A stretch of DNA of 64,000 nt from Candidatus Babelota bacterium (GCA_965658655.1 CBFHTA010000001.1:457005-521004), one strand, 5' to 3'. Shown: positions 12,584 through 64,000, numbered from the stretch's first letter. Notes: a model not told the origin generated them from the letters alone. A program made the numbers and translations.

Positions 12584-13843
12584 ATGAAAAAAACGTATGT
12601 TTATATTTTGTTGTCATTGTATGCTTCATTTAGTTTTTGTGCTTCTTCTGGAGTAGGTGGAAACATGTCTGAAGATCGTTTGTTCCGTATTCTCTGTTCT
12701 GTCAGTACTGATGAGAAGGCAGTGCAGACATTTCTTAATTCTGGAGTAGATGTGAATTCCAGAGACGGTTATGGCAGAACTTCGTTGTATTACGCGTGTC
12801 ATAACAAGTGTCAGGGAATGAAGGGAATGGTAGGAAAATTGATTGCTCATAATGCAGATGTAAATGTCAAAGAGAATTCTAAAGATACTCCATTGCATTA
12901 CGCATGTCATAAAGGTCATCAGGAAGCGGTATCGGCATTGATTGATAATAATGCAGAGGTAGATGCCCGTAATGCTAAAGAAAATACTCCATTACATTAC
13001 GCATGTTTTTACGGTCATCAGGAAGTGGCACAGCTCTTGATTGATAATAATGCAGAGGTAGATGCCCGTAATGCTAAAAAAGAGACTCCATTATATTATG
13101 CATGCATTAAAGGCTGTCAGGAAGTGGTAGAGGAATTGCTTGCTCATAATGCAGAGGTAAACTCAACGGATGCTTTTGGAGATACTTTATTGCATAAAGC
13201 ATGTTGTGCAGAATATAAGACTGCAGTAGAAAGCTTGCTTGCTCACAATGCAGAGATAAATGCAACGGATGCTCTTGGAGAGACTCCATTGCATAAGATA
13301 TGTTGCAAAGGAAATCTCGCTGCAATAGCATTCTTGCTTGAGAACAATGCAAATGTCAATGCGAAAGATTGTGGAGGGGAGACTCCATTGCATAAAGCAT
13401 CTTGTAATAGTGAGAGTGAAGTAGTAAGGCGCTTGCTTACTCATAATGCAGAGGTAGATGCCCAAGATTCTTCAGGTGAGACTCCATTACATAAAGCATC
13501 TTGTAATGGTCAGAGTCGAGTAGCAAGGCTTTTGCTTACTAACAATGCAGAGGTAGATGCCCGTAATACTGAAAGAGAGACTCCATTACATTACGCATCT
13601 TGTAATGGTCAGATTCGAGTAGCAAGGCTTTTGCTTACTAAAAATGCAAAGGTAGATGCCCGTAATACTCAAAGAGAGACTCCATTGCATAAAGCATGTC
13701 GTAATAGTAAGTATAGTACGGTAGATCTCTTGGTTCGTAACAATGCAGAGGTAGGTGCACAAGATTCTTCAGGTGAGATTCCATTAGATAAAGTTTCTTC
13801 TAAAGGCGATTCTCAAATGGAGTTCTTATTAACGCAGAGGTAG
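12584..13843 (+). CDS. Secreted ankyrin-repeat protein (~11 repeats)
   Basis: Signal peptide; repeated TPLHxAC..G...V..LL..NAEV. Confidence 0.95.
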   Translation: MKKTYVYILLSLYASFSFCASSGVGGNMSEDRLFRILCSVSTDEKAVQTFLNSGVDVNSRDGYGRTSLYYACHNKCQGMKGMVGKLIAHNADVNVKENSKDTPLHYACHKGHQEAVSALIDNNAEVDARNAKENTPLHYACFYGHQEVAQLLIDNNAEVDARNAKKETPLYYACIKGCQEVVEELLAHNAEVNSTDAFGDTLLHKACCAEYKTAVESLLAHNAEINATDALGETPLHKICCKGNLAAIAFLLENNANVNAKDCGGETPLHKASCNSESEVVRRLLTHNAEVDAQDSSGETPLHKASCNGQSRVARLLLTNNAEVDARNTERETPLHYASCNGQIRVARLLLTKNAKVDARNTQRETPLHKACRNSKYSTVDLLVRNNAEVGAQDSSGEIPLDKVSSKGDSQMEFLLTQR

Positions 13844-13883
13844 AGGTATAATTGTTTTTTATTGTTATGAGTTTAGGGGTTTT

Positions 13884-14828
13884 ATGAAAAAAATGTATGT
13901 TTATATTTTGTTATCATTGTGTACTTCATTCATTTTCTGTGCGTCTTCTGAAGTGGTTGGAAATGTATTCGGAGATACACTATTACATCGTTACTGTTAT
14001 AGTGGTAATAAGGAGTACGTAGAATCATTTCTTGCTAACAAACCAGCAGAAGTAAATGTTAAGAATGATAGTGCTCAAACTCCATTACATAGCGTGTGTA
14101 CTACTCATTATTGTGATGTGGCAGCGGTTTTGCTTGATTATAATGCAGAGGTAGATGCGAAAGAACATCTTGGAGATACACCATTGCATAAAGCATCTTT
14201 CAGTGGTCATAAGGATATGGCACAGCTTTTAATTGATAATAAAGCACAGATAAATATTAAGAATAATCTTGGAGAGGCTCCATTGTATTATGCATCTTGC
14301 AGTGGCCATAAGGATATCGCAGCCCTCTTGCTTGCTTATAATGCACAGATAAATATTAAGAATAATCTTGGAGATACACCATTGCATAAAGCATCTTGCA
14401 GTGGTCATAAGGATATGGCAGCCCTCTTGCTTGCTTATAATGCACAGATAAATATTAAGAATGATCTTGGAGATACACCATTGCATTATGCATCTTTCAA
14501 TGGTCATAAAGATATGGCACAGCTTTTGATTGATAATAACGCAGATAGAGAGGCACAAGATTGTTGTGGAGATACACCATTGCATAAAGTATGTTGTAAA
14601 GGCGATCAGGAGATGGCACAGCTCTTGATTGATAATAATGCAGAGGTAAATCCGAAAAATAGTCTTAAGGAAACTCCATTGCATAAAGCATATTCTAAAA
14701 GTCATGTAATAATGTCACAGCTTTTGATTGATAATAACGCAGATAGAGAGGCACAAGATGATTTTGGGAATACTCCATATCAAGCATATTGTAAGGCTCA
14801 TCATTTAGTAATAGAGCCTATTGGTTGA
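13884..14828 (+). CDS. Secreted ankyrin-repeat protein (~8-9 repeats), paralogue of the upstream gene
   Basis: Near-identical signal peptide; GDTPLH repeats. Confidence 0.95.
   Translation: MKKMYVYILLSLCTSFIFCASSEVVGNVFGDTLLHRYCYSGNKEYVESFLANKPAEVNVKNDSAQTPLHSVCTTHYCDVAAVLLDYNAEVDAKEHLGDTPLHKASFSGHKDMAQLLIDNKAQINIKNNLGEAPLYYASCSGHKDIAALLLAYNAQINIKNNLGDTPLHKASCSGHKDMAALLLAYNAQINIKNDLGDTPLHYASFNGHKDMAQLLIDNNADREAQDCCGDTPLHKVCCKGDQEMAQLLIDNNAEVNPKNSLKETPLHKAYSKSHVIMSQLLIDNNADREAQDDFGNTPYQAYCKAHHLVIEPIG
14170..14560 (+). repeat. Near-identical 99-bp coding tandem repeats (ankyrin units)
   Basis: gcacagataaatattaagaat(a/g)atcttggaga recurs at ~14244, 14343 and 14442; boundaries approximate. Confidence 0.85.
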
Positions 14829-14886
14829 TAACAATGCAGATATAAAGGTATAACTGTTTTTTATTAGTAGGAATACTGAGGGTTGT

Positions 14887-15426
14887 ATGAAAAAATTTTT
14901 AGTTTTAGTTTTATTTTTATTTAGTACCGTGCAAGCGTCTCAAATTCCTGTCAGAGGTGCATATGAATTTCGATCAAAACCAGAACTTATGCCGAGCCCA
15001 AAAACATTAACAGAAGCTGTTCGTTGGGGAACGCTAGAAGAAGTAAAAATGTTTTTGTCCTGTGGGTGGAACCCTAATGCAAGTGACAAAAATGGTAGAA
15101 CCTCTATGCACTTTGTAATTTTTAGACAAGATAATCATGCTATTTTTATTTTACAAGAACTACTTTTTGCAGGAGGGAGTCTAACGGTGCTAGATAAAAA
15201 TGAAGCGACCCCTGTACATGAAGCTCTTACCTTGGGTAATAAAAAGGCACTTAAAATATTTATAGTTTCTTATGGTTTGGTTTTTGATTCTTTATTAACT
15301 AAGAAATATCCGGTTATAGATAAAGTTGCTGTTGAATTGGGTTTTCCTCCGTCACAGGCTACGGTACAAGAGTGCTCTGCTTCTGGTTCTTTTTCAAAAA
15401 CTATAGCACGTCCAAGCCCTTTTTAA
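14887..15426 (+). CDS. Secreted ankyrin-repeat protein
   Basis: Signal peptide; GWNPNASDKNGRTSMH, ATPVHEA. Confidence 0.85.
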   Translation: MKKFLVLVLFLFSTVQASQIPVRGAYEFRSKPELMPSPKTLTEAVRWGTLEEVKMFLSCGWNPNASDKNGRTSMHFVIFRQDNHAIFILQELLFAGGSLTVLDKNEATPVHEALTLGNKKALKIFIVSYGLVFDSLLTKKYPVIDKVAVELGFPPSQATVQECSASGSFSKTIARPSPF

Positions 15427-19066: not shown

Positions 19067-19105
19067 AAGTCTTATAGAGTTAGATTTTAATAAATGGAGG
19101 TTTCT

Positions 19106-19579
19106 ATGAAAAAGGTATTATCGCTTTTAAGTTTATGTTCTTTTGTAGTGCTGCAAGCAGCTTCGATAGGTTCTGATTATAATAAGGTTATAGACTCTGA
19201 ATTACGTATACAAAGTGATGATTCCGGGCTTGTGGAATCACCGATAAGTTTTGATGATTCTTTAGATACCGAGGTTATTATTGCACTTGAAAAACCAATC
19301 GAGATTAACGGGAAAAAGGTTGGTGAAGTTACAGAAACTATAGGACAGCTTCAATTTAAATATAACAATATGCGGGTACTTATTGAGATGCTGTCTCCTT
19401 TTATCCATGAGCATGATAAAAATCACATGAGAGCTATTTTGAAATACTCTCCTGAAGATAAAAAATCTCTTATTGATCTAGCTAGAGACAAGATGGAAAA
19501 ACACGGTAACAAAGATAAAAGATGGGAAGCTCCAAATAATGCTGTGCAGAATTTTACATTTTTGAAGAGTTTAATTTAA
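19106..19579 (+). CDS. Secreted hypothetical protein
   Basis: GGAGG RBS then MKKVLSLLSLCSFVVLQA signal peptide. Confidence 0.75.
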   Translation: MKKVLSLLSLCSFVVLQAASIGSDYNKVIDSELRIQSDDSGLVESPISFDDSLDTEVIIALEKPIEINGKKVGEVTETIGQLQFKYNNMRVLIEMLSPFIHEHDKNHMRAILKYSPEDKKSLIDLARDKMEKHGNKDKRWEAPNNAVQNFTFLKSLI

Positions 19580-20027: not shown

Positions 20028-21536
20028 ATGACCAAAGAAAAAGATCTAAACGTAGAAGATACTCATACTGTTAACCCAGATGCTTCTGAGGAGCACCATA
20101 TTCGGGTTGAGAAAGTCAAAAAATTACGAGACCAGGGTATTGAGCCATGGCCTGAATTTAAGGAAGTGCCAAACACTTCTAAGCAGGTTATTGATGAATT
20201 TAAAGAAGATTCAGAAGTTGAGTATGCTATTGCGGGTCGTGTTGTAGCTTTGCGTTGGCATGGAAAAAGTGCTTTTGCGCAGTTGCAAGATCGTCATGGT
20301 CGTGTGCAGGTCTACTTTAAAAAAGATATTATTGGTGAAAAAACGTTTGATCTTTTTCAAGATAACTTAGACTTGGGAGACATTCTCTGGGTTAAGGGAA
20401 TCACTTTCAAAACTAAAACTGGCGAAACTACGATTAAAGCTTTTGAAGGCACACTACTTTCTAAGTGTCTTCATCCTCTACCAGAAAAATTTCATGGTAT
20501 TGCCGATGTAGAGATTAAATATCGTCAACGTTATTTAGATCTCATCTCCGACCAAGAGAGTAGAAACAAATTTGTAGTCCGCTCAAAGCTCATTAGCGGA
20601 CTACGTCATTATCTTGAAGACCATGAGTTTATGGAAGTAGAAACACCAATGCTTCATCCTATTCCGGGTGGTGCGGTGGCTAAGCCTTTTGTAACACATC
20701 ATAATGCTCTGCATTCAGACCTGTATTTGCGTATTGCTCCAGAGCTTTACCTTAAAAGACTTGTCGTTGGTGGATTTGAACGTGTGTATGAAATTAACCG
20801 TAGCTTTAGAAACGAAGGTATTTCTACAAAGCACAATCCTGAATTTACTATGCTAGAGTTCTATATGGCGCACAAAGATTATCATTACATGATGAATTTT
20901 GTAGAAGATATGCTCAAAAAAGTAGTTAAAAAATCATGTGAGACAGATCAAGTTGCATTTGGTGAACATACCTTAGATTTTGCAAAACCATTTGAACGCA
21001 TGAGTATCAAAGAAGCTGTGCTTAAACATGGTAATTACAAAGAAGAAGACGTTTCTATCGATAAAATTGACGATGAGATAAAAAAACATGGAGCAAAGCT
21101 TCAGGTTAAAGACGCATCTTATGGGCAGAAGTTATTTTTATTGTTCGAAGAAGTTGCAGAGTCTCATCTTATTCAACCAACATTTATCACCGACTTTCCG
21201 GTAGAAGTTTCTCCACTTTCAAAGCGTGATGTAAATAATCCAAATTTTGTATCTAGGTTTGAACTGTTCATGGGTGGAATGGAACTTTCTAATTGTTTCA
21301 ATGAGTTAAACGAACCGTTTGATCAAGAAGAGCGATTCAAAGAGCAAGCAGCGACTCATGCTGCTGGTGATGACGAAGCAATGCATTTTGACGGTGACTA
21401 TGTTCGTGCGCTTGAATATGGATTACCTCCAACAGTGGGTGTTGGAATTGGTATTGATCGTCTTGCTATGATTTTAACCAATACTACTTCTATTAAGGAC
21501 GTTATCTTGTTCCCAACCCTTAAGAGAAAAGACTAA
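20028..21536 (+). CDS. lysS: Lysine-tRNA ligase (class II)
   Basis: YRQRYLDL, RIAPELYLKRLVVGG, FRNEG, GIGIDRLAM. Confidence 0.98.
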   Translation: MTKEKDLNVEDTHTVNPDASEEHHIRVEKVKKLRDQGIEPWPEFKEVPNTSKQVIDEFKEDSEVEYAIAGRVVALRWHGKSAFAQLQDRHGRVQVYFKKDIIGEKTFDLFQDNLDLGDILWVKGITFKTKTGETTIKAFEGTLLSKCLHPLPEKFHGIADVEIKYRQRYLDLISDQESRNKFVVRSKLISGLRHYLEDHEFMEVETPMLHPIPGGAVAKPFVTHHNALHSDLYLRIAPELYLKRLVVGGFERVYEINRSFRNEGISTKHNPEFTMLEFYMAHKDYHYMMNFVEDMLKKVVKKSCETDQVAFGEHTLDFAKPFERMSIKEAVLKHGNYKEEDVSIDKIDDEIKKHGAKLQVKDASYGQKLFLLFEEVAESHLIQPTFITDFPVEVSPLSKRDVNNPNFVSRFELFMGGMELSNCFNELNEPFDQEERFKEQAATHAAGDDEAMHFDGDYVRALEYGLPPTVGVGIGIDRLAMILTNTTSIKDVILFPTLKRKD

Positions 21537-22154
21537 TTATTGATGTGTCTTTTCTAATCTTTTAGAAGAGGTAGATTTCATAACTTGTGAGAGACTTGGA
21601 GTCCCTTTTTTTCTTTTAAAAGATGAAGAAGTTTTTTCTTGATGCTTTAAAGTTTTTTTGTGCCTTTTAAGCGAAGAGAGTATTCCAAATGTTTGATTAC
21701 AAGGAGCACATAAATAAACTTTGCTTTTTGTATGTATCCTTATATGAATTTTAAGGGCACCTTTTCGGGCAAAGGTTTTATTACAAGTATCACAAGAAAA
21801 CGGTTTCTCACCGCTATGTTTTGATTGTGTATGAAGTTTAAGGTCACCTTTTCGGGCAAAGGTTTTATTACAAGCATCACAAGGAAACGGTTTCTCACCG
21901 CTATGTACTTCTTTTCGATGTGTCATTAACCCTTTTTCTTGTGCAAATGTTTGATTGCATTCGCTGCAGCGAGCATTGATTACTTTTTCATGTGTTCTTG
22001 TATGTCTTTCCAAAGCATTACTTGTTGTGAATATTTGACTGCAGAGATTGCAAAAAAGATCTTTAGAAAAAGTTCTGTTAGAAGATGCAGATTGAACAAT
22101 AGATGTATTTGTTAAAAATAATGCGAAAATTATAACTATTAATTTTTTATTCAT
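21537..22154 (-). CDS. Secreted C2H2 zinc-finger protein (5 fingers, KRKK NLS-like)
   Basis: Signal peptide; five Cx2Cx3Fx5Lx2Hx3-5H units with SGEKP linkers. Confidence 0.92.
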   Translation of the reverse strand: MNKKLIVIIFALFLTNTSIVQSASSNRTFSKDLFCNLCSQIFTTSNALERHTRTHEKVINARCSECNQTFAQEKGLMTHRKEVHSGEKPFPCDACNKTFARKGDLKLHTQSKHSGEKPFSCDTCNKTFARKGALKIHIRIHTKSKVYLCAPCNQTFGILSSLKRHKKTLKHQEKTSSSFKRKKGTPSLSQVMKSTSSKRLEKTHQ

Positions 22155-22205
22155 TTAGGTTCCGAAAATTATAAGATAAAAACTTATTGTGACAGAAAGG
22201 GTATT

Positions 22206-22286
22206 ATGAATCAAGCATTATTAATGAATCCTGAAGCAGGTTTTCAAGATCAAGAGTATATGGATACCAAAAAAAGAGGTGATTAG
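22206..22286 (+). pseudogene. Duplicated 5' fragment of the PfpI-family gene
   Basis: MNQALLMNPEAGFQDQEYMDTKK vs MKQVLLMISEVGFQEQEYTDTKK at 23073. Confidence 0.85.
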
Positions 22287-22289
22287 TCA

Positions 22290-22337
22290 TAAGGACGTTA
22301 CCTTGTTCCCAACCCTTAAGAGAAAAGACTCATTATT
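22290..22337 (+). repeat. Duplicate of the lysS 3' end (copy of 21494-21541)
   Basis: 46/48 nt identical by hand alignment. Confidence 0.92.
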
Positions 22338-22950
22338 TATTTGTACTTTCTAATCTTTTGAAAGAGGTAGATTTCATAGCTTGTGAGAGACCTGGAGTTT
22401 CCTTTTTTCTTTTAAGAGATAAACCTGCTATTTCTGGATGTTGTGCATTATTGTGCCTTTGCAGCCCATAGTGTCTAGTAAATACGGCGTTGCAAAGAGC
22501 GCATAAATAAGATCTGTGTTTTTTGTGTACTTCATTTATATGTCTGTTAAGAACGTTTTTTCGGCTAAATTCTTTCTTGCAGATATTACAAGAATGGGAT
22601 GCTTTTTCGCCATGTACTTCATCTGTGTGTCTTTTAAGACCCTCTTTTCGAACAAATTTTTTTGGGCAAAAACGGCAAGAATAGGATGCTTTTTCGCCAT
22701 GTATTTCATTTGTATGTCGCTTGAGACCATATTTTTCTGTAAATGTACGTGCACATTGGGTGCAACTATAATATCCTTTTTCTTCATGTGTTTTTCTATG
22801 TTCTGTAAAATCTTTATTTGTTTTAAACATTTGATTACACGTATTGCAGACAATATCTTTAGAAAAAGCTGTGTCAGAAGATGCAGATTGAACAGTAGAT
22901 GTATTTGTTAGTAATAATCCGAAAATTATAATTATTAATTTTTTATTCAT
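22333..22950 (-). CDS. Secreted C2H2 zinc-finger protein (5 fingers, KRKK NLS-like), tandem paralogue
   Basis: Same 205-aa length, similar signal peptide and C-tail as 21537-22154; GEKAS linkers. Confidence 0.92.
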   Translation of the reverse strand: MNKKLIIIIFGLLLTNTSTVQSASSDTAFSKDIVCNTCNQMFKTNKDFTEHRKTHEEKGYYSCTQCARTFTEKYGLKRHTNEIHGEKASYSCRFCPKKFVRKEGLKRHTDEVHGEKASHSCNICKKEFSRKNVLNRHINEVHKKHRSYLCALCNAVFTRHYGLQRHNNAQHPEIAGLSLKRKKETPGLSQAMKSTSFKRLESTNK

Positions 22951-23072
22951 TTAGATCCCTAAAATTATAATATAAAAGTCTATGTGTTATACTTTGTTTG
23001 TTGATATGACTTTATTTAGGTTTGTGTATTATTTCTTTAAAAATAAAAATTCATTCTGACAGAAAGAGGATT

Positions 23073-23585
23073 ATGAAGCAAGTATTATTAATGATTTCTG
23101 AAGTAGGTTTTCAAGAGCAAGAGTATACGGATACTAAAAAAGTATTAGAAGAGGCAGGGGTTAAAGTTCTTACCACTTCAGATCATTCAAAAGAGGCGAT
23201 TGGGCATAATGGAGTAAAGCAAAAAATAGAAGTGCAACTTGACCAAATTAATCCACGAGAATACGATGGTATCTTTGTAATCGGTGGTTCTGGTGCGCTT
23301 GATCATTTAAATGTCCCTAAAGTTCACAAAGTGTTAAGTGAATTTTTTGCTCTCGATAAACCGTACGGTGCTATTTGCATTTCTTCTCGTATTCTTGCTC
23401 AAGCAGAATTGTTGCAAAACAAAAAAGCTGCATGTTGGAACAAAGATGAAAAAGCACAAGCTATTTTGGAAGCTTATGGAGCAGAGTTTGTGGATGAACA
23501 TGTGGTGACTGATGGCAAAGTAGTAACAGCTAATGGCCCCGATGCAGCAATAGATTTTGGTAAAGCAATTTTAGAAGTTATATAG
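23073..23585 (+). CDS. DJ-1/PfpI family protein
   Basis: GFQEQE, YDGIFVIGG.G, GAIC, DGKVVTANGP; GAGGA RBS before ATG 23073. Confidence 0.9.
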   Translation: MKQVLLMISEVGFQEQEYTDTKKVLEEAGVKVLTTSDHSKEAIGHNGVKQKIEVQLDQINPREYDGIFVIGGSGALDHLNVPKVHKVLSEFFALDKPYGAICISSRILAQAELLQNKKAACWNKDEKAQAILEAYGAEFVDEHVVTDGKVVTANGPDAAIDFGKAILEVI

Positions 23586-32814: not shown

Positions 32815-34158
32815 GTGGCCAGTGGCATAATCAATCTTTTGACTTCAGTTTTTAGAGGCTTTGAAAGCCCAGAAGAAAGAAGGAAATTTTCTATCCTAGC
32901 GGTTCTTTTTGGCCTTACCATCGGTGTTTATTGGCTTTTTAGGCCACTTAAGGATAGTGTTTTTTTGACAATGGTAGGTAGAGATTATCAACCATGGGCA
33001 AAAATCCTGTCTATTTTTGTTACTGCTGGTGCGGTACTGGTCTATTCATATTTGGTAGATAAATATCCTCGGCACAAACTTTTATATGGATATTCGCTTT
33101 TCTATGCGGTTCTTTCTATTATATTTGCCTTTTTTATTATTGATCCTCAAGTAGGTTTAGCCAATACAGTAGAAGATCCACACCGTTATATTGGGTGGCT
33201 TTTTTATTTATTTGTGGAGAGCTTTGGTTCAACAATGGTTGCATTGTTTTGGTCTTTTGTTGCTGACACAACTACTCCTGAATCTGCACGCAGAGGGTAT
33301 GCATTGATTGTTTTTGGTGCACAGAGTGGAGGTGTTATTGTGCCTTTGCTTGGTAAGATTGTTATTAACTATAGTTCCTCTGGTTCTGCTATGTTGATTT
33401 GTGTGGTGGGTATTTGTTGCATTCCGGCAGTGGTGTATTACTTCATGCATACGGTTTCTCGCAAGCAGCTTAAAGGTTTTGACGGTAGTAAGAATGCCAT
33501 CGAAAAAGGTAAAAAAAATAAAATAAAATTTTTAGATGGTCTTTATTTGGTAATAAATCGTCCGTATGTTCTCGCCATTTTTACTATGGTAGCGTTTTAT
33601 GAAGTTGTTATTATTATGATTGATTTTCAATTTAAGTGGTTAGCGAAAGCTGCTTATACAGGCGATGCGCTTACTAACTTTTTTACTACCTATGCGATTT
33701 CAATTAATGTAATTGCTGTGTTGAGTGTATTGCTTGGCTCTAAAGGAATTATGCGCAGACTGGGACTTTCGAGAACTTTATTGTTGCTTCCGGTGGTAGT
33801 AGGGACAGCTGCAATTATTGTTAATATGAATCCAGTTTTATGGGTTGCATTTAGTGTGATGGTGATGTGTAAAAGTATTAACTATTCACTTAATCAACCA
33901 GCAAAAGAGCAGCTTTATATTCCTACTTCGAAAAATACTAAATACAAAGCAAAAGCGTGGATCGACATGTTCGGTATTCGTCTTTCTAAAGGAACCGCTT
34001 CTGCTATTAATACGTTGCGACCATTGTTGGGTGTTGCAACATTTACCATGTTGAGTCTTGGGCTCTCTGCTGTTTTGATTTTTGTATGGTTTTTTGCCGC
34101 AGTATTTTTAGGCAAAGAGCATAGTGCAGCTATCGAGCAAGACCGTATTGTTTGTTAA
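32815..34158 (+). CDS. Nucleotide transporter, NTT/TLC (ATP/ADP translocase) family
   Basis: RPLKDS, FVESFGS..VALFWSF, NQPAKEQLYIPT..KYKAKAWID; polytopic membrane protein. Confidence 0.9.
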   Translation: MASGIINLLTSVFRGFESPEERRKFSILAVLFGLTIGVYWLFRPLKDSVFLTMVGRDYQPWAKILSIFVTAGAVLVYSYLVDKYPRHKLLYGYSLFYAVLSIIFAFFIIDPQVGLANTVEDPHRYIGWLFYLFVESFGSTMVALFWSFVADTTTPESARRGYALIVFGAQSGGVIVPLLGKIVINYSSSGSAMLICVVGICCIPAVVYYFMHTVSRKQLKGFDGSKNAIEKGKKNKIKFLDGLYLVINRPYVLAIFTMVAFYEVVIIMIDFQFKWLAKAAYTGDALTNFFTTYAISINVIAVLSVLLGSKGIMRRLGLSRTLLLLPVVVGTAAIIVNMNPVLWVAFSVMVMCKSINYSLNQPAKEQLYIPTSKNTKYKAKAWIDMFGIRLSKGTASAINTLRPLLGVATFTMLSLGLSAVLIFVWFFAAVFLGKEHSAAIEQDRIVC

Positions 34159-34253
34159 TCTAGAAAGGAGTGTCCATATAGTAAAAGGGTGTGGTAAGAA
34201 AAAATTTGAAGTGAATTTTTTACAATAACCAAAATAACATTAAAGAGGTATTT

Positions 34254-35648
34254 ATGTTTAGTGGTATTATTCAGTATTTTTATCCTGATTTAAAAAAAGA
34301 AGAGTTGAATAAGTTTGGTCATTTAGCAGTAGCATTCTTGTTTACTGTTGGAACCTACTGGTTGTTGCGTTTAGTTAAAGACGCTGTGGTTTATGAATTA
34401 GCTTTCCCTACAGAATTGGGTTGGGCTATTGGGTACGGTGCAACAGTTGTAAGATGGCTTAAAACGCTCTCTCCATTTGTTGTTGTAGGTGCTTTAACTG
34501 TTTATACAAGGTTGATTGATGTATTTGAAAAGCAACAACTTTTCTATGTGATTGGAAGTTTCTTTGCAGTTGTTTTTGCAATGATCGCATTAATTCTATT
34601 TGGTGCTGATACACTTGGTTTTCAAGCAATTGGTGCTATTCCTTTTGGTAAAGAAGCATTAGCTGGAGCTGGTTGCGTCGGTTACCTTGCGACTGAAGCA
34701 TTTGGTTCTTTAATGATGGCACTTTTCTGGTCATTTACTGTGAGTAGCTCAACAAGTGATCAAGCAAAACGTGGATTCCCATTTGTTATTGCACTAGGGC
34801 AAATTGGTGCAATTATTGGTTCTTCTTTAATGTTATTTAAAGGAAGTTTTCCAACATGGCCCCTTTACTTTGTGGCAATCGCTACAATCTTTGGTTTGAT
34901 TTTTACTATTAAGAGTCTTGTTGCTTCTGTTCCAGCAGCAGAATTAACAAGTGGAAAAACAGAGAAGAAAAGTAAACCAGATATGCTTGCAGGTCTTAAA
35001 CTACTTTTGACACAGCCATACTTGATGGGTGTGTTTGTAGTTTCAACATTCTACGAAGTTGCAAAAGTAGTGGTTGATATGCAAATGAAATATCAAGCAT
35101 CTGTTATCCCTGGATTTAACTTCCCAAGATTCTTAGGAATCTTTGGTGTATGTGTTAATACTCTATCATTTGTAATGGTATTGTTGGGAACTTCATATGC
35201 TATGAAAAAATACGGTCTTCGTGTTTGTTTGTTGATTTATCCAATTGTATTTGCTGCTTGCTTGGGTGGTATGTACTTCTTCTACTCAACTGGTCCAGAT
35301 GCTACAAGTTTAGTATGGGCAACGTTTGCAGCTATGATGCTTATTACAGCAACTTCATATGCAGTTAATAATCCAGTAAAAGAAATGATGTATATTCCAA
35401 CTTCAAAAGACGCTAAGTTTAAAGCTAAAGGTCTTGTTGATATGGTTGGTGGCCGTGCAGGTAAAATGTCTGGTGCGCAAATTGGTGGTAGCTTAATTGT
35501 TCCTGGCAATGTGTCTGCAAGTATTGCAGGTTTAATGACAACAGGAACACTGATTAGTCTTGGTGTTGTTGGCGTATGGGCACTCGTTGCTGTGTATGTT
35601 GGTATTAAAAATGCACAGTTGGTTAAAGACGGCGAAATTATCGAGTAA
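34254..35648 (+). CDS. Nucleotide transporter, NTT/TLC family
   Basis: RLVKDA, EAFGSLMMALFWSF, NNPVKEMMYIPTSKDAKFKAK..D..GGRAGK. Confidence 0.9.
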   Translation: MFSGIIQYFYPDLKKEELNKFGHLAVAFLFTVGTYWLLRLVKDAVVYELAFPTELGWAIGYGATVVRWLKTLSPFVVVGALTVYTRLIDVFEKQQLFYVIGSFFAVVFAMIALILFGADTLGFQAIGAIPFGKEALAGAGCVGYLATEAFGSLMMALFWSFTVSSSTSDQAKRGFPFVIALGQIGAIIGSSLMLFKGSFPTWPLYFVAIATIFGLIFTIKSLVASVPAAELTSGKTEKKSKPDMLAGLKLLLTQPYLMGVFVVSTFYEVAKVVVDMQMKYQASVIPGFNFPRFLGIFGVCVNTLSFVMVLLGTSYAMKKYGLRVCLLIYPIVFAACLGGMYFFYSTGPDATSLVWATFAAMMLITATSYAVNNPVKEMMYIPTSKDAKFKAKGLVDMVGGRAGKMSGAQIGGSLIVPGNVSASIAGLMTTGTLISLGVVGVWALVAVYVGIKNAQLVKDGEIIE

Positions 35649-35722
35649 AAAGAACATCGCGTTTTTTATTAAACGTGGTACATTAACATGGACTGAGTAA
35701 CTTCATTATAAGGAACTAATCC

Positions 35723-37054
35723 ATGTTGCAAACCCTAGCTCAATTGCTGTGGGGAAAATTCAAAAGCAAGAATGAGTGTTTTAAGTTTATTAGACTGGCA
35801 CTCATTTTTGCTTTTACTATCGGTGTCTACTGGTTAATCAACCCACTTAAAGACACTGTTTTTATAAGTATTGTAGGTAAGCAATGGCTTGCCTACGCAA
35901 AAGTCTTTTCTATCTGTTTTCTTTTTCCTCTTTTGATACTCTATGGCAGACTTGTAGATATGTTCAAACGTCACCGTATGTTTTATGTCATCTGTGGCAT
36001 TTACACTTTGTGTTCGTTGATCTTTGCGTACTTGTTAAGTGACCCTTCTATTGGGCTACCTAATACCGTTGCCAATGGTGGTCGTTTGATAGGTTGGCTC
36101 TGGTATGCATTTGTAGAAAGCTTTGGTTCCTTAATTGTTGCATTGTTCTGGTCGTTTGCTTCTGATACTTCTACACCTGATTCGGCAAAGCGTGGTTTTA
36201 GTATTATTGCTATGGGCGCTCAATTTGGTGGTGTGCTTGGGCCATTGTTTGGATTATGGGTGTCTCAATTTGCTGGCCCTGTACCTATTATTATTGTGGG
36301 TGCCGTTGGTATGTTTAGTATTGGCTGCTTGATTTTCAACTTTATGAAAGTAACGCCATCTTCTGAGTTGGTAGGGTTTCATTCTAATGAACCTACAGCT
36401 AGCTATAGAAAGCCAGCACCAGGTTTTTTTGAGGGATTACAGCTCATTGCTGCTCAACCATATTTATTGAGTATAGTGGCCATTGTGAGCTTGTACGAGG
36501 TAGTCAGTATTTTCTTAGAATTGCATATGAAAATTATGGCCGCCAATGTTTTGCCAAAAGGTGTTGTAATGCAAGGTTTCTTCTTTAAGTATGCCATTTT
36601 TGTTAATGGAGTTGCTTTGACTTGTTTACTCTTGGGAGCAGGGGCTATTGGAAGGGCGCTTGGATTGTCTAGAACGTTATTATTACTACCAACGCTTATG
36701 GGTATTGGTATATGTGCTGTGTGGTGGGCTCCTGGGCTGTGGATGTCTCTTGGTGTAATGGTTATTACGAAAGGCCTCAATTACGCCTTAAATCAGCCTG
36801 TTAAAGAGCAATTGTATATCCCCACAACGCGTGAGTCTAAGTATAAAGCTAAGGCCTGGATAGACAGTTTTGGGTCTAGATTATCAAAAAGTATAGGCTC
36901 CTCTATTCATATGCTCCGTCCTGTGCTACAATCGTTCTTTGTAGTGGTGAGTTCCAGTATTTGTTTTGGACTTATAGGGATATGGATAGCAGCGGCATTG
37001 TTTGCAGCGCGATTGCACGACGATGCTGTTGAAAAGGATTACGAAATATGTTGA
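35723..37054 (+). CDS. Nucleotide transporter, NTT/TLC family
   Basis: PLKDT, FVESFGSLIVALFWSF, NQPVKEQLYIPT..KYKAKAWID. Confidence 0.9.
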   Translation: MLQTLAQLLWGKFKSKNECFKFIRLALIFAFTIGVYWLINPLKDTVFISIVGKQWLAYAKVFSICFLFPLLILYGRLVDMFKRHRMFYVICGIYTLCSLIFAYLLSDPSIGLPNTVANGGRLIGWLWYAFVESFGSLIVALFWSFASDTSTPDSAKRGFSIIAMGAQFGGVLGPLFGLWVSQFAGPVPIIIVGAVGMFSIGCLIFNFMKVTPSSELVGFHSNEPTASYRKPAPGFFEGLQLIAAQPYLLSIVAIVSLYEVVSIFLELHMKIMAANVLPKGVVMQGFFFKYAIFVNGVALTCLLLGAGAIGRALGLSRTLLLLPTLMGIGICAVWWAPGLWMSLGVMVITKGLNYALNQPVKEQLYIPTTRESKYKAKAWIDSFGSRLSKSIGSSIHMLRPVLQSFFVVVSSSICFGLIGIWIAAALFAARLHDDAVEKDYEIC

Positions 37055-37124
37055 GTACTAGCGACATATATAGGAAAAATAAGAAAATGCATAAAGCGTT
37101 AAGAAATTTGACGCGTAAAATTTT

Positions 37125-37155
37125 GGCCTTCTAGAAATTCTAGAGGCCTTTTTTT
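37125..37155 (+). terminator. Intrinsic terminator
   Basis: GGCCTTCTAGA-aat-TCTAGAGGCC plus T7. Confidence 0.7.
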
Positions 37156-37193
37156 GTTGTGGTGTGTGAGTTGTTATTGATCTATAAAGGGTT

Positions 37194-38606
37194 ATGATGC
37201 GCATAGGTATTATGCAAACTTTCAAGGCTTTGTGGGAAATTGAGGAAAAAGAGCAGCTTAAAGCTTTGTTCTTGAGTGGTGCTTTTTTTGCTATTATTTC
37301 TGCTTATACGATTATTAAAGAGTTAAAAGACTCTATTTTTATGAACATTGTAGGCGGGAAAGAGGCAGTTCCTTACGCTAAATTATTTATGATTTTTGGT
37401 TTAGTGCCATTGGTGCTTCTGTATTCAAAGTTGGTTGATTCGGTGCGCCGATACCAGCTTCTTGCTTATTGTGCATGGGTTTACAGTATCATTGGCTTTT
37501 TTTGTGCCATTGTGATTAGTTATGGTGGATTAGGAACAGCAGTTGTTAAACCATATAGTGCCTATTGGTTTTTTGGTTGGTTCTATTATTTCTATATTGA
37601 GAGCTTTTCGCCTTTTATTGTCGGAGTATTTTGGGCATTTTTAAACTCAGTTTCTACTCCTGATTCAGCTAAGAAAAACTATGGTATTTTAATTTCCGTA
37701 TCTAAGCTTGGAGGTATGCTTTCAGCTGGTCTTGCATGGTTCTTGCTTTCTCATTCTGGTCAATGTCATGCTGTTGGTTTAAATGAAACGCGCTTGCATG
37801 CTTTGCTGATTGTTATTTCTTCTGTAATTCTACTAGCGGTACCCTTTATTATTAATTTGATGATGAAAATGGTTCCTGGTCAGTATCTTCATGGGTATGA
37901 AGCTGCTTATCAGTTTGAAAAAAAGCAAAGTAAGGCTGGAGCTAAAGATACTGGGATTTTTAGTGGTCTGCTTATTCTTTTACGTTATCCTTACGCTTTT
38001 GGTATCTTCTGCTCTATCTTCTTTTACGAAGTTTTGAGTGCGATTTTAAGCTATATGCGTTTGGGGGTTGCTCAAAACTCTGCTGCTGACATTTCCGGTG
38101 TAAGTTGCTTCTTGTTTAAAATTGTTTTTTATACTCATATGATAGGTTTTGTTATCTCCCTTTTTGGTACTCGAGTATTGATCTCGTATCTGGGAGAACG
38201 TTTGTCTTTGATGGTCATGCCTATTGTTATGGGAACCCTTTTAATCTATCTCATGTTTAGCTCTTCTCCTGGAGCTTTAATTGCAGCTTTTGTAGCGCTC
38301 AGAGCGATTTACTATGCATTTAATCAGCCGGTAACTGAGGCGCTGTATATTCCAACAGTAAAAGACATGAAGTTTAAATCTAAATCATGGATTGATACGT
38401 TCGGTAAAAAGTTTGCTCGGGGAGCTGGGTCGAGCTTTAATATTCTTGCTACCAGTGTTGCAGGTACAGTGACAAGTGGTGTCCATGGAGTATTCTTTGG
38501 GGGCATTGTCATTTTATGGTCAGTTGTGTCTTTCATGCTTGGTAGGCGTTATGATAGGGCGATTAAGAAGGGTGAGGTAATAGGAGCAGATGAGCTTGAA
38601 GGTTAA
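37194..38606 (+). CDS. Nucleotide transporter, NTT/TLC family
   Basis: ELKDS, ESFSPFIVGVFWAF, NQPVTEALYIPT..KFKSKSWID. Confidence 0.9.
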   Translation: MMRIGIMQTFKALWEIEEKEQLKALFLSGAFFAIISAYTIIKELKDSIFMNIVGGKEAVPYAKLFMIFGLVPLVLLYSKLVDSVRRYQLLAYCAWVYSIIGFFCAIVISYGGLGTAVVKPYSAYWFFGWFYYFYIESFSPFIVGVFWAFLNSVSTPDSAKKNYGILISVSKLGGMLSAGLAWFLLSHSGQCHAVGLNETRLHALLIVISSVILLAVPFIINLMMKMVPGQYLHGYEAAYQFEKKQSKAGAKDTGIFSGLLILLRYPYAFGIFCSIFFYEVLSAILSYMRLGVAQNSAADISGVSCFLFKIVFYTHMIGFVISLFGTRVLISYLGERLSLMVMPIVMGTLLIYLMFSSSPGALIAAFVALRAIYYAFNQPVTEALYIPTVKDMKFKSKSWIDTFGKKFARGAGSSFNILATSVAGTVTSGVHGVFFGGIVILWSVVSFMLGRRYDRAIKKGEVIGADELEG

Positions 38607-43812: not shown

Positions 43813-44478
43813 CTAAATATCTGCTTGAGATTTTTTAATGTATGTGTTCATTAAGCTTACCAGGTTGTTATAACCTCGGCGTTGAGCAATCTTTAGGGGA
43901 GTGGTTTTTGAGTCATCAGAGGATTCTGGTTGCGCACCGTATTCGAGTAAAATTTGGGCAATAGCGTGGTTTCCGGCTCGAGCTGCTGCGTGAAGTGGGG
44001 TCCAACCTTCTTTATTTGCTTTGTTTGGTTGAGCACCGTTGTCTAACAGCATGCGGACTAATGTTACGTTGCCAGAACGTGCTGCAACATGAAGCGGTGT
44101 CCATCCACCGTTGTCTGTCATGTTCACATCGGCTCCAGTATAGATAAGATACAATGCAAGGTTGTAATGACTATTGCGAATAGCGCACATTAAAACCGTC
44201 CAGCCATCGTCTGTTTGTGCATTTACGCTGATTCCATTTTTAATTAATTGTGCAACTTTGTTCTGCTTACCTTCTTTGGCCGCTTCCATAATAGATTGCC
44301 ACTTGGTGGTAGATGGCCGAGCAATGGGAGATAAGTCATTACGTAATTGTAGGGGGATTAGTGCTTTTAGTTCTTCTCGTAATTGTTTTTGAGGTCTGAT
44401 TGTTGGGGACTCAAGGCCTTTTACAAAAGCGTGGTTTGTTTGGGCAACTAATAACAAAAGAGCTAAGAACTTCTTCAC
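43813..44478 (-). CDS. Secreted ankyrin-repeat protein (~4 repeats)
   Basis: Signal peptide; GWTPLHVAARSG, GWTPLHAAARAG. Confidence 0.92.
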   Translation of the reverse strand: MKKFLALLLLVAQTNHAFVKGLESPTIRPQKQLREELKALIPLQLRNDLSPIARPSTTKWQSIMEAAKEGKQNKVAQLIKNGISVNAQTDDGWTVLMCAIRNSHYNLALYLIYTGADVNMTDNGGWTPLHVAARSGNVTLVRMLLDNGAQPNKANKEGWTPLHAAARAGNHAIAQILLEYGAQPESSDDSKTTPLKIAQRRGYNNLVSLMNTYIKKSQADI

Positions 44479-59176: not shown

Positions 59177-59506
59177 ATGGCAAATATTAAGTCATCAAAA
59201 AAACGTGCTCGCCAAATGCTTGGCAGAAGACAAAAAAATCTAGCACGTACATCTGCGATTAAAACTGTAGTAAAAAAAGTTATGGATGCAATTAAAGCAA
59301 AAGATCATGCTGCATCAGTTACTTTATTTAAAGATGCAGAAGCGCAAATGTCTCGTGCAAAAGGTAAGAAAGTAATGCATGCTAAAACAGCTTCTCGTAA
59401 GATTAGTCGTTTAGCAAAAAAGGTTGCGGCTCTTTCAAAAGAAGCTAAACCTGCAGCTGCTAAAAAAGCTGCTCCAAAAAAGAAAGCAGCAGAAGCTGCT
59501 AAGTAA
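59177..59506 (+). CDS. rpsT: 30S ribosomal protein S20 with basic C-terminal tail
   Basis: MANIKSSKKR, H.KTASRKISRL. Confidence 0.95.
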   Translation: MANIKSSKKRARQMLGRRQKNLARTSAIKTVVKKVMDAIKAKDHAASVTLFKDAEAQMSRAKGKKVMHAKTASRKISRLAKKVAALSKEAKPAAAKKAAPKKKAAEAAK

Positions 59507-59512
59507 GAAAAA

Positions 59513-59567
59513 TTTTTAGACGCGTTGATTTCTTTCTTCGCGTCTTTTTTTCTTTTCTCTTAATTCC
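59513..59567. repeat. 55-bp direct repeat, left copy (duplicate of the mrdA 3' end; contains a terminator hairpin)
   Basis: 53/55 identical to 60418-60472; AGACGCG/CGCGTCT stem plus T-run. Confidence 0.92.
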
Positions 59568-59674
59568 TTTCATATTCGTCAATAGCTCTGGGTTAGAGAG
59601 TTTTGATTTTAATTTAAAAATATTCTATAAGTAGGGAGCGATTTTTCGATTTTCCTTATAGAAAGGTTTTTTAA

Positions 59675-60118
59675 ATGAAAGAAAAATTTCCTCTAATAAT
59701 ATTGTTATGTTGTTCTATGAATATTTCTTATTCAGCAAGTGTCCCAGTTTCTATTCTTGCAAAAATAGGAGTATCATTTGGGCCGGCCGGGCAAGTAGGA
59801 GCTTTTTTTGGTCCAGTAACTTTTGTAGGTGGGTTAGCTCTTGGTAGTTTTGTAACATTATTGAAAGGGAAAAAGAGTGTTAATAATGCACAAGCTCCAG
59901 GAGTGCCGACAGTACAAGACGGGTTTGTTCCTCCAAAGAGGTGGGACGGAAAAAAACATAGACATCCGATTAATGGAAAAGTTGGCTATCCTGATAAAAA
60001 AGGTAATATATGGGTTCCTACAGGTCCTGGTCCCCTTGCGCATGGAGGTCCGCATTGGGATGTGCAGACTCCTGATGGAAGAGCTAAAAATGTTTATCCT
60101 GGTGGAAAGGTAAGATAA
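59675..60118 (+). CDS. Secreted polymorphic toxin, Ntox37-like predicted RNase domain
   Basis: Signal peptide, Gly-rich hydrophobic linker, C-terminal DGFVPPKRWDG...GYPDKKGNIWVPTG...HGGPHWDVQ...NVYPGG recalled as typical of toxin-37 domains. Confidence 0.72.
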   Translation: MKEKFPLIILLCCSMNISYSASVPVSILAKIGVSFGPAGQVGAFFGPVTFVGGLALGSFVTLLKGKKSVNNAQAPGVPTVQDGFVPPKRWDGKKHRHPINGKVGYPDKKGNIWVPTGPGPLAHGGPHWDVQTPDGRAKNVYPGGKVR

Positions 60119-60412
60119 GTGAATACTACTACTCTCATTTGTAAAGATATATTTTTTTATTCTGACTTAGACGAAGCAGTTTTTTTTGAATGGATTAAAA
60201 AAATTCCTTCTATTCAAGATTGTAAAGGTGTGGCAGATGAACTTCATTTAGATGTTCAGATAGGTATGAGTGATCATGCATTACGAAACCTTATTGCACT
60301 TTTTTCTCGTTATGCAATTGAGATGAATGATTTGAAGCAATTTGTAACGGATGAGAATAGGCAATGGTTTCAGAATGAAAAAGCGTACTGGTATTCGAAT
60401 ATTTTTCAGTAA
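60119..60412 (+). CDS. Probable cognate immunity protein
   Basis: Small acidic ORF with no signal peptide, starting immediately after the toxin stop. Confidence 0.65.
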   Translation: MNTTTLICKDIFFYSDLDEAVFFEWIKKIPSIQDCKGVADELHLDVQIGMSDHALRNLIALFSRYAIEMNDLKQFVTDENRQWFQNEKAYWYSNIFQ

Positions 60413-60417
60413 AAAAG

Positions 60418-60472
60418 TTTTTAGACGCGTTGATTTTTTTCTTCGCGTCTTTTTTTCTTCTCTCTTAATTCC
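60418..60472. repeat. 55-bp direct repeat, right copy (mrdA 3' end)
   Basis: Matches 59513-59567. Confidence 0.92.
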
Positions 60473-63086: not shown

Positions 63087-63254
63087 TACATTCCTTGAGC
63101 TTATTTAAGCTCAGAGTACTGAATGAGAGTTATAAGTGCAACTGTTATGATTTATAGACTTATTTAAGCTTATAAATTACAAGCAGACCCTGTTGACTAA
63201 TAGAGATTATTTGAGTAAATTATTCTTACAATAAACTTTAATAGAGAGGTTGTG

Positions 63255-63962
63255 ATGAATAAAGTATGGATGTTTGGATTACTTTTTATTTCAATAGGGC
63301 AATTGAATGGAATGGAGACTGGTTTCAATGTACTACCATTAGAAGGTCTGATAGATAAAGATGGGGCGATGTTTGGCTTAGATATGTTGAATGAAGAGGA
63401 TGCATCTCAGATTTTAACTGCGTTGGCTTCTTTTCAAGAAGTAGAGATACCTCACACTCAGCAAAGTAGTGAACAATCTTTGGTTGTAGGGGCAGTAAGT
63501 ACAGCATCAGATAAAAAGCGTAAAAGAACTCACACAGAGGAAGGATCTTATGTATGTGGAATTTGTCATAAAGGTTTTAAGAAAAAGTGTAATTTAAAAA
63601 CACATATAAGAGTTCATACGGGGGAAAAACCTTTTGTATGTGAGATTTGTGATAAAAGTTTTACGGAAAAGAGTAGTTTAAAAACACATATAAGAATTCA
63701 TACAGGGGAAAAACCTTTTGTATGTGAAATTTGTGATACAGGTTTTACGCAATCTAGTAATTTAAAAAAACATGAAAGAATCCATACAGGGGAAAGGCCT
63801 TATAGGTGTGAAATTTGTGATACAGGTTTTACGGAAAAGAGTGGTTTAACAATGCATATAAGAGTTCATACAGGTGAGAGACCTTATGAGTGTGAAATTT
63901 GTCATAGAAGTTTTAAGCAATTTGGTAATTTATCAAGACATAAAAAAGTACATGAAAAATAA
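63255..63962 (+). CDS. Secreted C2H2 zinc-finger protein (5 Kruppel-type fingers, KKRKR NLS-like, acidic N-region)
   Basis: Signal peptide MNKVWMFGLLFISIGQLNG; five 28-aa fingers with TGEKP/TGERP linkers (84-bp repeats). Confidence 0.95.
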   Translation: MNKVWMFGLLFISIGQLNGMETGFNVLPLEGLIDKDGAMFGLDMLNEEDASQILTALASFQEVEIPHTQQSSEQSLVVGAVSTASDKKRKRTHTEEGSYVCGICHKGFKKKCNLKTHIRVHTGEKPFVCEICDKSFTEKSSLKTHIRIHTGEKPFVCEICDTGFTQSSNLKKHERIHTGERPYRCEICDTGFTEKSGLTMHIRVHTGERPYECEICHRSFKQFGNLSRHKKVHEK

Positions 63963-63983
63963 ATAGGTAATAAGGAGGTTATA

Positions 63984-64000
63984 ATGAATAAAGTATGGAT
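63984..64000 (+). CDS. Start of a tandem paralogue of 63255-63962 (truncated by window edge)
   Basis: AAGGAGG RBS then ATGAATAAAGTATGGAT, identical to the first 17 nt of the preceding gene. Confidence 0.7.

Follow-up and report, generated by a model that had tools for sequence, protein, structure and literature searches.

Among eukaryotic Krueppel-type C2H2 zinc-finger proteins, positive selection at the contact residues has been documented for KRAB-ZNF proteins and for PRDM9. In bacteria, the TAL effectors of Xanthomonas and Ralstonia are described, in excerpts of one account and partly in general background, as exported modular repeat proteins that read DNA, carry a nuclear localization signal and possess recombining repeats (PMC4168661). 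The Ros/MucR proteins are bacterial DNA-binding proteins with a Cys2His2 zinc site, again according to excerpts and general background (PMC9779718, PMC7710501), and excerpts of a study of Kistimonas report an enrichment of zinc fingers that is explained by citing the Ros/MucR literature (PMC12491435). In the literature excerpts searched we found no description of signal-peptide poly-C2H2 proteins in bacteria, and the term 'zinc finger' does not occur in the excerpts of genome papers on the Dependentiae/Babelota phylum. Here we analyze a tandem pair of C2H2 genes, ZnF-A and ZnF-B, that lies between lysS and pfpI in the genome of a Candidatus Babelota bacterium (G000; its sister species is G001, with a genome of 0.8 Mb). 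The window, i.e., the whole stretch of DNA that was analyzed, comprises 64,000 nt (G000:C1:457005-521004), and positions are counted from its first letter unless a contig or locus is named. The G000 genome comes from a marine plankton metagenome and consists of 928,713 bp on 4 contigs, with ~37% GC and 95% completeness.

A 796-bp Unit Is Present Twice in Tandem between lysS and pfpI

A 796-bp unit, composed of the lysS tail, a five-finger C2H2 gene and the pfpI head, occurs in two tandem copies with the following layout.

20028-21536, + strand: lysS (lysyl-tRNA synthetase class II), intact; Pfam tRNA-synt_2, E=1.7e-92; 88% identical to the G001 ortholog
21537-22154, - strand: ZnF-A, 205 amino acids (aa), five C2H2 fingers; zf-C2H2 E=7e-22, zf-H2C2_2 E=1.9e-24
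22155-22206, no strand: intergenic region of copy A, short and divergent; 43/52 identical to the copy B region
22207-22276, + strand: dead pfpI head, the first ~23 pfpI codons followed by an early stop; 60/70 identical to 23073-23142
22277-22289, no strand: duplication junction, where the pfpI head is joined to the lysS tail, with ~13 nt of filler or rearranged sequence (from the alignment)
22290-22332, + strand: dead lysS tail, a copy of 21494-21536; 41/43 identical
22333-22950, - strand: ZnF-B, 205 aa, ZnF-A-like layout with five intact C2H2 fingers; zf-C2H2 E=1.7e-20, zf-H2C2_2 E=9.5e-13
22951-23072, no strand: intergenic region of copy B and pfpI promoter region (from the alignment)
23073-23585, + strand: pfpI (DJ-1/PfpI family), intact; Pfam DJ-1_PfpI E=1.7e-34

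This arrangement had been proposed in an earlier reading of the DNA (the original prediction), and it was recovered at the same places by a repeat search and by global alignment. The repeat search paired 21494-21644 with 22290-22440 (151 nt, 86%, offset 796) and 22173-22274 with 23040-23141 (102 nt, 86%); a core block (21812-22111 vs 22608-22907) matched at just 67%. The duplicated lysS tail derives from the last 43 nt of intact lysS (21494-21536), and the reported identity of 46/48 over 21494-21541 vs 22290-22337 was reproduced by the global alignment. The duplicated pfpI head derives from the first 70 nt of intact pfpI and is clearly alignable with it. Homology ends at ~22276-22289, in agreement with the junction placed at ~22277-22289, and allowing for a 5-nt insertion possibly shifts the joint slightly, by a few bases, to a higher position. 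In the global alignment, 71 nt upstream of live pfpI (22969-23039) are missing from copy A. The two proteins are identical at 99/206 aligned positions (48%, E=4e-54), and the protein alignment confirmed that both are 205 aa long, with matches at 25 of the first 32 residues and at 20 of the last 28. Head-to-tail repetition, a new joint and pieces of the neighboring genes at that joint identify a tandem segmental duplication; the ZnF pair is a genuine case, and its fragments of the lysS tail and the pfpI head are dead.

An assembler could have produced such a structure by joining two strain haplotypes of a single locus, a concern raised by the metagenomic derivation of the genome and by the repeated gene families that break contigs elsewhere (C1 end, C2 start). 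We consider this extremely improbable. The joint has unique sequence of its own, and a 197-nt contig assembled from a second sample (run X2, record 12) runs across it at 22142-22338 with 0 differences; therefore, as judged from contigs of one study, the duplication is real DNA. Other X2 contigs run without differences from lysS into ZnF-A (21261-21614) and from ZnF-B into pfpI (22875-23293), and a single 25-kb contig spans the whole region at even depth. A repeated graph traversal would also not yield flank copies that deviate from their originals (41/43 and 60/70) or a pfpI copy that is cut short and carries a stop. Among the contigs of the two samples we found no alternative allele, indel or joint, with X2 lacking cover at 21904-22137 and 22372-22839.

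Tandem duplication appears to be common in the G000 genome; many other short-range direct repeats are present (80-98% identity, spacing 0.2-2.6 kb), e.g., at C2:36127-36732, C2:37127-38450, C4:10011-11421 and C1:409451-410088. Within the window, the rpsT hairpin terminator is duplicated (59502-59573 and 60408-60478, 72 nt, 92%). The 0.9-kb insert between the terminator copies has open reading frames (ORFs) at 59675-60118 and 60119-60412. A Bacterial toxin 37 (Ntox37) domain (E=5.7e-15) was recognized in one product, which has a signal peptide; the other ORF is small, lacks Pfam matches and may specify an immunity protein.

The Ends and the Finger Core of the Two Copies Differ in Age

Identity between the copies is distributed unevenly along the unit. 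By block, it amounts to 41/43 in the lysS tail, 77/90 in the C-terminal tail, 267/429 in the finger core, 88/96 in the N-terminus, 43/52 in the intergenic region and 60/70 in the pfpI head. A two-breakpoint likelihood fit delimits a core at 21625-22058 with an identity of 0.622 (n=431) versus 0.883 outside it (n=349), a gain in likelihood that was reached by 0/100 shuffles, and this low-identity segment coincides exactly with the finger array. The observation that the non-functional flank copies are better conserved than the coding core thus stands.

Synonymous (pS, dS) and nonsynonymous (pN, dN) divergence was estimated by the Nei-Gojobori method. Uniform synonymous divergence across the unit, which the original prediction had named as the outcome that would speak against it, is not what we found, as pS is 0.457 in the core versus 0.046 and 0.151 in the ends:

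N-terminus (codons 1-32): pS 0.046, pN 0.094, dS 0.048, dN 0.101
C-terminus (last 30 codons): pS 0.151, pN 0.171, dS 0.169, dN 0.194
Core: pS 0.457, pN 0.361, dS 0.70, dN 0.49

In a test that requires no assumption about mutational paths, 2/43 codons for identical residues differ between the copies in the ends versus 14/54 in the core (Fisher p=0.0055). Because silent divergence cannot be increased by protein-level selection, its excess in the core means that the ends and the finger core of the two copies differ in age. A difference in age between two parts of one unit in turn requires recombination, which had been offered as one of two possible causes in the original prediction. The dead lysS and pfpI fragments, 95% and 86% identical to their originals, act as a built-in neutral clock that dates the ends independently of protein selection.

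The comparison with G001 provides a scale. Orthologs of G000 and G001 have a dS of 0.84 (lysS), 1.22 (recJ) and 1.41 (pfpI), and 33-43% of the identical-residue codons of these genes differ. Thus, the age of the cores approaches that of the species split, and the ends are younger by a factor of five to ten. The segments differ significantly in silent divergence and the breakpoints are discrete, as in a mosaic left by partial conversion. The pair illustrates a constant frame and a variable array evolving in a 0.93-Mb genome, of a kind often assumed to be recombinationally quiet.

We also considered whether the conserved dead fragments have a role of their own, and rejected this idea. The lysS/ZnF-A boundary carries a hairpin (-11.6 and -13.8 kcal/mol on the two strands) whose counterpart at the dead lysS tail of copy B has decayed (-6.1 kcal/mol, z=+0.67). 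A promoter-like site for ZnF-A is found on the minus strand (-35 at 22195-22190, -10 ending at 22168; 10/12 match), and sites of this type are not enriched in the region.

Silent Divergence Limits the Role of Selection on the Fingers

With canonical contact numbering (helix positions -1, +2, +3 and +6), all five recognition helices differ between ZnF-A and ZnF-B, each at 2 to 3 of its four contact positions, as had been noted. The accompanying statement that the fingers share little beyond structural residues was somewhat overstated, since 42/95 finger positions are identical; identity is 5/20 at contact positions vs 37/75 at the other finger positions (p=0.075). At contact codons, pN is 0.483 versus a pS of 0.42-0.50 (0.419 at the contact codons, 0.457 in the core), whereas non-contact finger codons display a pN of 0.30 versus a pS of 0.50. 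The scaffold is therefore constrained, and the contact positions are approximately neutral or saturated. Core dN/dS is ~0.7 (0.49/0.70) and rises to ~1 at the base-contacting positions, a weak comparison of two sequences near saturation. The intact zinc ligands and a non-contact pN below pS indicate that both ZnF copies have been kept working.

These values bear on the strong diversifying selection that the original prediction had offered as the other cause. In such a scenario, a recent duplication of the whole unit would have been followed by strong diversifying selection, or by local hypermutation, that rewrote the finger array alone. The lower conservation of the contact positions (5/20 versus 37/75) is consistent with it, as is a core dN/dS of ~0.7, which is high for a folded domain. 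Intra-array conversion has, in addition, demonstrably overwritten fingers 3 and 4 of ZnF-A, which are 95% identical in DNA over 77 nt (21743-21819 vs 21830-21906); DNA identity between fingers 3 and 4 of ZnF-B is 0.70. However, the ~five times higher silent divergence of the core (14/54 vs 2/43, p=0.0055) is too high for selection alone. The comparison of dN/dS at helix positions -1, 2, 3 and 6 with the scaffold, suggested at the outset as a check, gives contact positions that are not demonstrably above 1, with a contact-codon pN (0.483) not above pS (0.42-0.50). Furthermore, fingers 1, 2 and 5 have diverged to the same degree as fingers 3 and 4 and resemble the other fingers of their own gene at just 0.45-0.61, so intra-array shuffling cannot explain them. 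General scans of the locus revealed no array-targeting mutation element, although no search was aimed at one. We regard this scenario as very unlikely; positive selection on contact residues is possible, with dN not above dS at the candidate sites.

Recombination between the Copies

Positional partners among the fingers of the two genes share DNA identities of 0.68 (A1-B1), 0.61 (A2-B2) and 0.65 (A5-B5), compared to ~0.5 for non-partners. G000 encodes a second C2H2 family, described below, and in a finger-by-finger DNA matrix none of its 31 fingers is closer to a core finger than the positional partner is. The cores were therefore not replaced from a paralog in G000, and a core donor inside the genome was ruled out. 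Conversion acts in this genome, to judge from fingers 3 and 4 of ZnF-A and from the heads of the second family, where the first 60 nt of six genes are 97-100% identical and the rest falls into two subtypes with 61-100% identity. These cases make end-restricted conversion of an old tandem pair the preferred reading. We hold with moderate confidence that the locus is best explained by an old duplicate whose ends alone underwent gene conversion or unequal exchange and whose products function as exported, host-directed DNA binders; the direction and mechanism of recombination, export, nuclear targeting and DNA binding are components that we infer. Gene conversion limited to the flanks, which the original prediction had named as an alternative to its own proposal, is judged the most likely cause of the flank similarity.

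Under end-restricted conversion, illegitimate joining of the pfpI head to the lysS tail would have generated the tandem 796-bp unit, with both copies intact. Gene conversion or unequal exchange between the tandem copies would then have occurred repeatedly and been limited to the ends, so that the dead fragments, signal peptide, C-terminal tail and promoter region would have stayed similar enough for recombination. The cores would have escaped homogenization, with a constrained zinc scaffold and base-contacting residues under free or diversifying change, and fingers 3 and 4 would have been partly homogenized inside each array.

The two-age pattern is equally expected if an already diverged allele was recently imported from a related lineage and either added beside the resident copy or swapped into it. 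The ends would then be young by recent shared population ancestry, and the cores would represent old alleles. Import may have taken place through homology-facilitated illegitimate recombination, Campbell-type integration of a circular unit, or a double crossover in the conserved ends after a recent duplication. Breakpoints at the edges of the finger array (21625, 22058), as if crossovers needed conserved ends, are in line with this account. So are the presence in the window of another insertion, flanked by a duplicated 72-nt terminator, the variable content of the lysS-pfpI gap among relatives, and the low identity of pfpI to that of G001 (just 60%, vs 88% for lysS and 92% for recJ). However, one prediction of an import failed: the dead pfpI head resembles live pfpI much more closely than either of them resembles G001 pfpI, which traces both to this lineage. 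In composition, the A and B cores are also alike (GC 0.350 and 0.345; GC at third codon positions 0.19 and 0.20). No donor or intermediate allele emerged as a third sequence from the scan of genome contigs, which returned 1 locus with a weak short match to ZnF-A residues 85-138 on a Streptomyces contig, or from the scan of metagenome contigs, which returned 8 loci, all at 28-38% identity; nor do the contigs of the two samples hold an alternative allele. Intragenomic conversion, demonstrable in the second family, suffices without an outside donor. We thus consider an import, the main rival, somewhat unlikely and retain end-restricted conversion. A foreign origin of copy B was rejected separately by a comparison with G001 of the pfpI heads and lysS tails, both dead and live, which places both copies in this lineage.

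ZnF-A and ZnF-B Resemble Eukaryotic Finger Arrays

Sequence comparison assigns both proteins to the classical C2H2 zinc finger fold. The C-x2-C-x12-H-x3-5-H ligand spacing is complete in 5/5 fingers of ZnF-A, where the fingers span aa 35-172, and in 5/5 fingers of ZnF-B. Both score above the Pfam cut-offs for zf-C2H2 (77.0 and 72.7 bits for ZnF-A and ZnF-B, respectively; cut-off 25.2) and zf-H2C2_2 (85.0 and 48.2 bits; cut-off 40). The 16-17 Pfam matches of the ZnF proteins are to zinc-finger models only, the RNA-binding finger models zf-met and zf-C2H2_jaz among them. Read from the translations, the N-terminus of both proteins is basic (K3, K4) and continues with an 11-residue hydrophobic run and V-Q-S before A, over ~25 aa; both also carry a basic C-terminal tail with a KRKK motif. 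The linker reads SGEKPF at 2/4 places in ZnF-A and HGEKAS at 2/4 places in ZnF-B. At the contact positions of ZnF-A, G, A or S occupies +2 or +3 in fingers 2 to 5.

The closest solved structures are DNA-bound arrays, namely ZNF568 (E=3.6e-65), CTCF, Aart, PRDM9 and ZBTB24, and the nearest sequences, among the matches listed, are animal (fish) poly-ZNFs with ~40% identity over 65-80% of the query. A search of 5.8 billion proteins with ZnF-A gave 501 matches, of which, among the matches listed, none is full-length except ZnF-A itself; ZnF-B is absent among the best 120 of the 501. NCBIfam holds no model for proteins of this type, and Protein Atlas returned generic C2H2 clusters alone.

C2H2 Proteins with Signal-Like Starts in the Lineage

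G000 contains eight ORFs with at least two fingers, comprising the ZnF pair and six genes of the second family, the first of which lies in the window.

63252-63962, + strand: first gene of the second signal-peptide-like C2H2 family, five TGE(K/R)P-linked fingers; zf-H2C2_2 E=1.3e-41

The second-family array runs off the end of C1 (window 63252-64000) and continues on C2:1-3897 (whole genes at C2:139-3897); six genes are complete, and the C1 end and the C2 start interrupt additional copies. The encoded proteins share a signal-like start, a constant head of ~98 aa with a KKRKR motif and 4 to 7 fingers, joined throughout by canonical TGE(K/R)P linkers.

Beyond G000, PF13465 was detected in 42/151 genomes of the order (13 above the curated cut-off), in 12/15 genomes of the family and in 0/14 control genomes. 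ZnF-A as a query matched in 21/41 genomes, G000 included, and no full-length ortholog of it was found among the 40 relatives. By a crude hydrophobicity screen, a hydrophobic signal-like segment opens 9/15 of the multi-finger ORFs examined in relatives, and several of the remaining ones are cut by locus ends. Judged by these sequence features, signal-bearing C2H2 fingers are a lineage trait of the order, with family-wide occurrence.

The lysS-pfpI Gap Is Variable among Relatives

Comparison of the lysS-pfpI locus in related genomes, another check that had been suggested, revealed variable gap content, with the ZnF pair present in G000 alone among the genomes searched. pfpI was found in 10/15 other family genomes. 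In 3 of these 10 (G004, G009, G012), lysS lies ~75-120 nt from pfpI; 6/10 carry inserts in the gap, of 2.0 kb in G001, 2.4 kb in G006, 4.5 kb in G013, 5.1 kb in G014, 5.2 kb in G015 and 5.4 kb in G008; and in the remaining genome (G011, 1/10) the contig ends before lysS. No zinc-finger gene occupies the gap in any relative in which it was read. The inserts (L041:4276-6135, L042, L043, L045, L046, L047) encode proteins of 619-733 aa with signal-like starts. The G001 protein matches a lysophospholipase/cPLA2 catalytic domain (PLA2_B, E=2.5e-11), and the other gap proteins share PLA2_B-like motifs with it by eye; the gaps of some relatives appear to hold a second secreted-type protein of ~730 aa as well. 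On these predictions, the lysS-pfpI gap serves relatives as a variable slot in which secreted eukaryote-like genes reside.

Other features were noted around this slot. G013 has a C2H2 gene outside the gap, on the far side of lysS (L043:272-607). The pfpI proteins of G000 and G001 (23073-23585 vs L041:3676-4185) are 60% identical, compared to 88% for lysS and 92% for recJ; cmk is also low, at 68%. The low pfpI identity could result from uneven rates or from past replacement. Between sodA and lysS, a 161-aa ORF (19094-19579) has a signal-like start and no Pfam match, and the sodA-lysS interval is also longer in G001.

A Putative Role of the ZnF Proteins in a Eukaryotic Host

TLC ATP/ADP-translocase genes are a hallmark of energy parasitism. 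The window contains four tandem TLC ATP/ADP (nucleotide) translocase genes (~32878-38552) and clusters of ankyrin-repeat genes (~12710-15270 and 43885-44220). Genome-wide, G000 has 32 Ank_2 ankyrin-repeat matches, two secretins and one strong GspE/PilB-type ATPase; neither VirB4 (type IV secretion) nor a DsbB or DsbA-type family was found in the 95% complete genome. This gene content is consistent with an intracellular energy parasite of a eukaryote that exports proteins through Sec plus secretins.

The ZnF proteins are probably host-directed effectors. They would leave the cell through Sec and a secretin-type machine and enter the host nucleus by means of the KRKK motif, where ZnF-A and ZnF-B would bind different DNA targets of ~15 bp, a TALE-like strategy built from eukaryote-type fingers. 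The basic motifs of both families resemble the general consensus of nuclear localization signals. Alternatively, the proteins may not be host-directed DNA binders and may instead bind zinc, protein or RNA in the envelope or cytoplasm, or regulate the bacterial genome. The small residues at several contact positions, the Pfam scores for the RNA-binding finger models zf-met and zf-C2H2_jaz and the lack of any effector domain besides the fingers would agree with such roles. We nevertheless consider them unlikely, given that the nearest sequences and structures are eukaryotic DNA-bound arrays, that basic motifs resembling nuclear localization signals by general consensus occur in both families, and that marks of an intracellular parasite are accompanied by other eukaryote-like secreted genes in the lysS-pfpI slot of relatives. 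It is similarly doubtful that the hydrophobic N-terminus is an anchor or remains uncleaved: read from the translations, it has an n-, h- and c-region layout that ends in V-Q-S before A, and a signal-like start recurs on unrelated finger proteins of relatives (9/15) and on the second family.

Several points weigh against end-restricted conversion in exported DNA binders. There are two sequences and no third for polarizing the changes, so that conversion of the ends is inseparable from a recent duplication with a replaced core, and two separate conversion tracts of similar age are needed, each reaching the end of the unit. Informative flank codons are few (43), the N-terminus has 1.0 synonymous versus 7.0 nonsynonymous differences, and the Nei-Gojobori estimates of the core are near saturation. 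The X2 sample is from the same study as the probable source, and contigs rather than reads were compared. Promoter-like sites in the region number 7, versus 7.8 expected in shuffles. As for function, zinc fingers crossing a periplasm are unorthodox, and the small residues at several contact positions are unusual for highly specific DNA readers.

More broadly, and only tentatively, we suggest that this order of reduced, protist- or plankton-associated intracellular bacteria may possess its own class of exported, programmable zinc-finger DNA readers. Its members would combine an export and nuclear-import frame kept uniform by conversion with a rewritable array of 4-7 fingers, forming a counterpart of the TAL effectors aimed at host chromatin, and the lysS-pfpI pair would be a young snapshot of new specificities. 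If the proteins do reach the host nucleus, bacteria would possess a second family of modular DNA-reading effectors that evolved independently. This family would be built from the best-understood DNA-binding module, making host targets predictable and directly testable.

Comparison with Known Systems

The ZnF proteins share the finger fold of eukaryotic Krueppel-type C2H2 proteins such as KRAB-ZNF and PRDM9, with PF00096 and PF13465 above their cut-offs. Tandem paralogs that combine a constant module with a changeable array, and fingers homogenized within arrays, are further points of likeness. The analogy to PRDM9/KRAB-ZNF drawn in the original prediction thus holds for architecture; it does not extend to membership, as no KRAB, SCAN, BTB or PR/SET domain is present by Pfam, and the constant module consists of a signal-like N-terminus and a short basic tail. 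The genes here are also bacterial, encode just five fingers in 205 aa with partly canonical linkers, and display a contact-residue pN that is not above pS.

The proposed logic of a host-associated bacterium with a modular exported reader, whose paralogs differ in the array, would resemble that of the TAL effectors. Unlike these, the ZnF proteins consist of 28-aa zinc-binding fingers rather than 33-35-aa TAL repeats, and Pfam gives zinc-finger models only. They carry a putative Sec-type signal in place of a type III signal and no activation domain, and their function is predicted from sequence. The eukaryote-like families of intracellular bacteria (ankyrin, F-box) likewise represent eukaryote-type repeat domains expanded in a reduced, host-dependent genome.

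Within bacteria, an annotated Endozoicomonas C2H2 protein (P0029) is among the ZnF-A homologs. It has no signal-like start, in contrast to the short, signal-bearing proteins in tandem arrays described here. Ros/MucR proteins are cytoplasmic regulators with a single atypical finger, whereas the ZnF proteins have five classical tandem fingers and no ROS_MUCR Pfam match; the Ros/MucR literature cited for Kistimonas, as far as its excerpts go, concerns a different family from the ZnF pair.

The sharp breakpoints, with silent sites following the split, resemble concerted evolution by partial conversion, and the second family is alike in this respect. Unlike in usual concerted evolution, the homogenized tracts include dead fragments of two housekeeping genes. 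By analogy, the proteins would belong to a kind already known, the eukaryote-like effector families and nucleomodulins. The novelty would lie less in the duplication than in the item duplicated, which appears to belong to a lineage-wide family of probably exported, eukaryote-type finger arrays whose frame is kept uniform by recombination.

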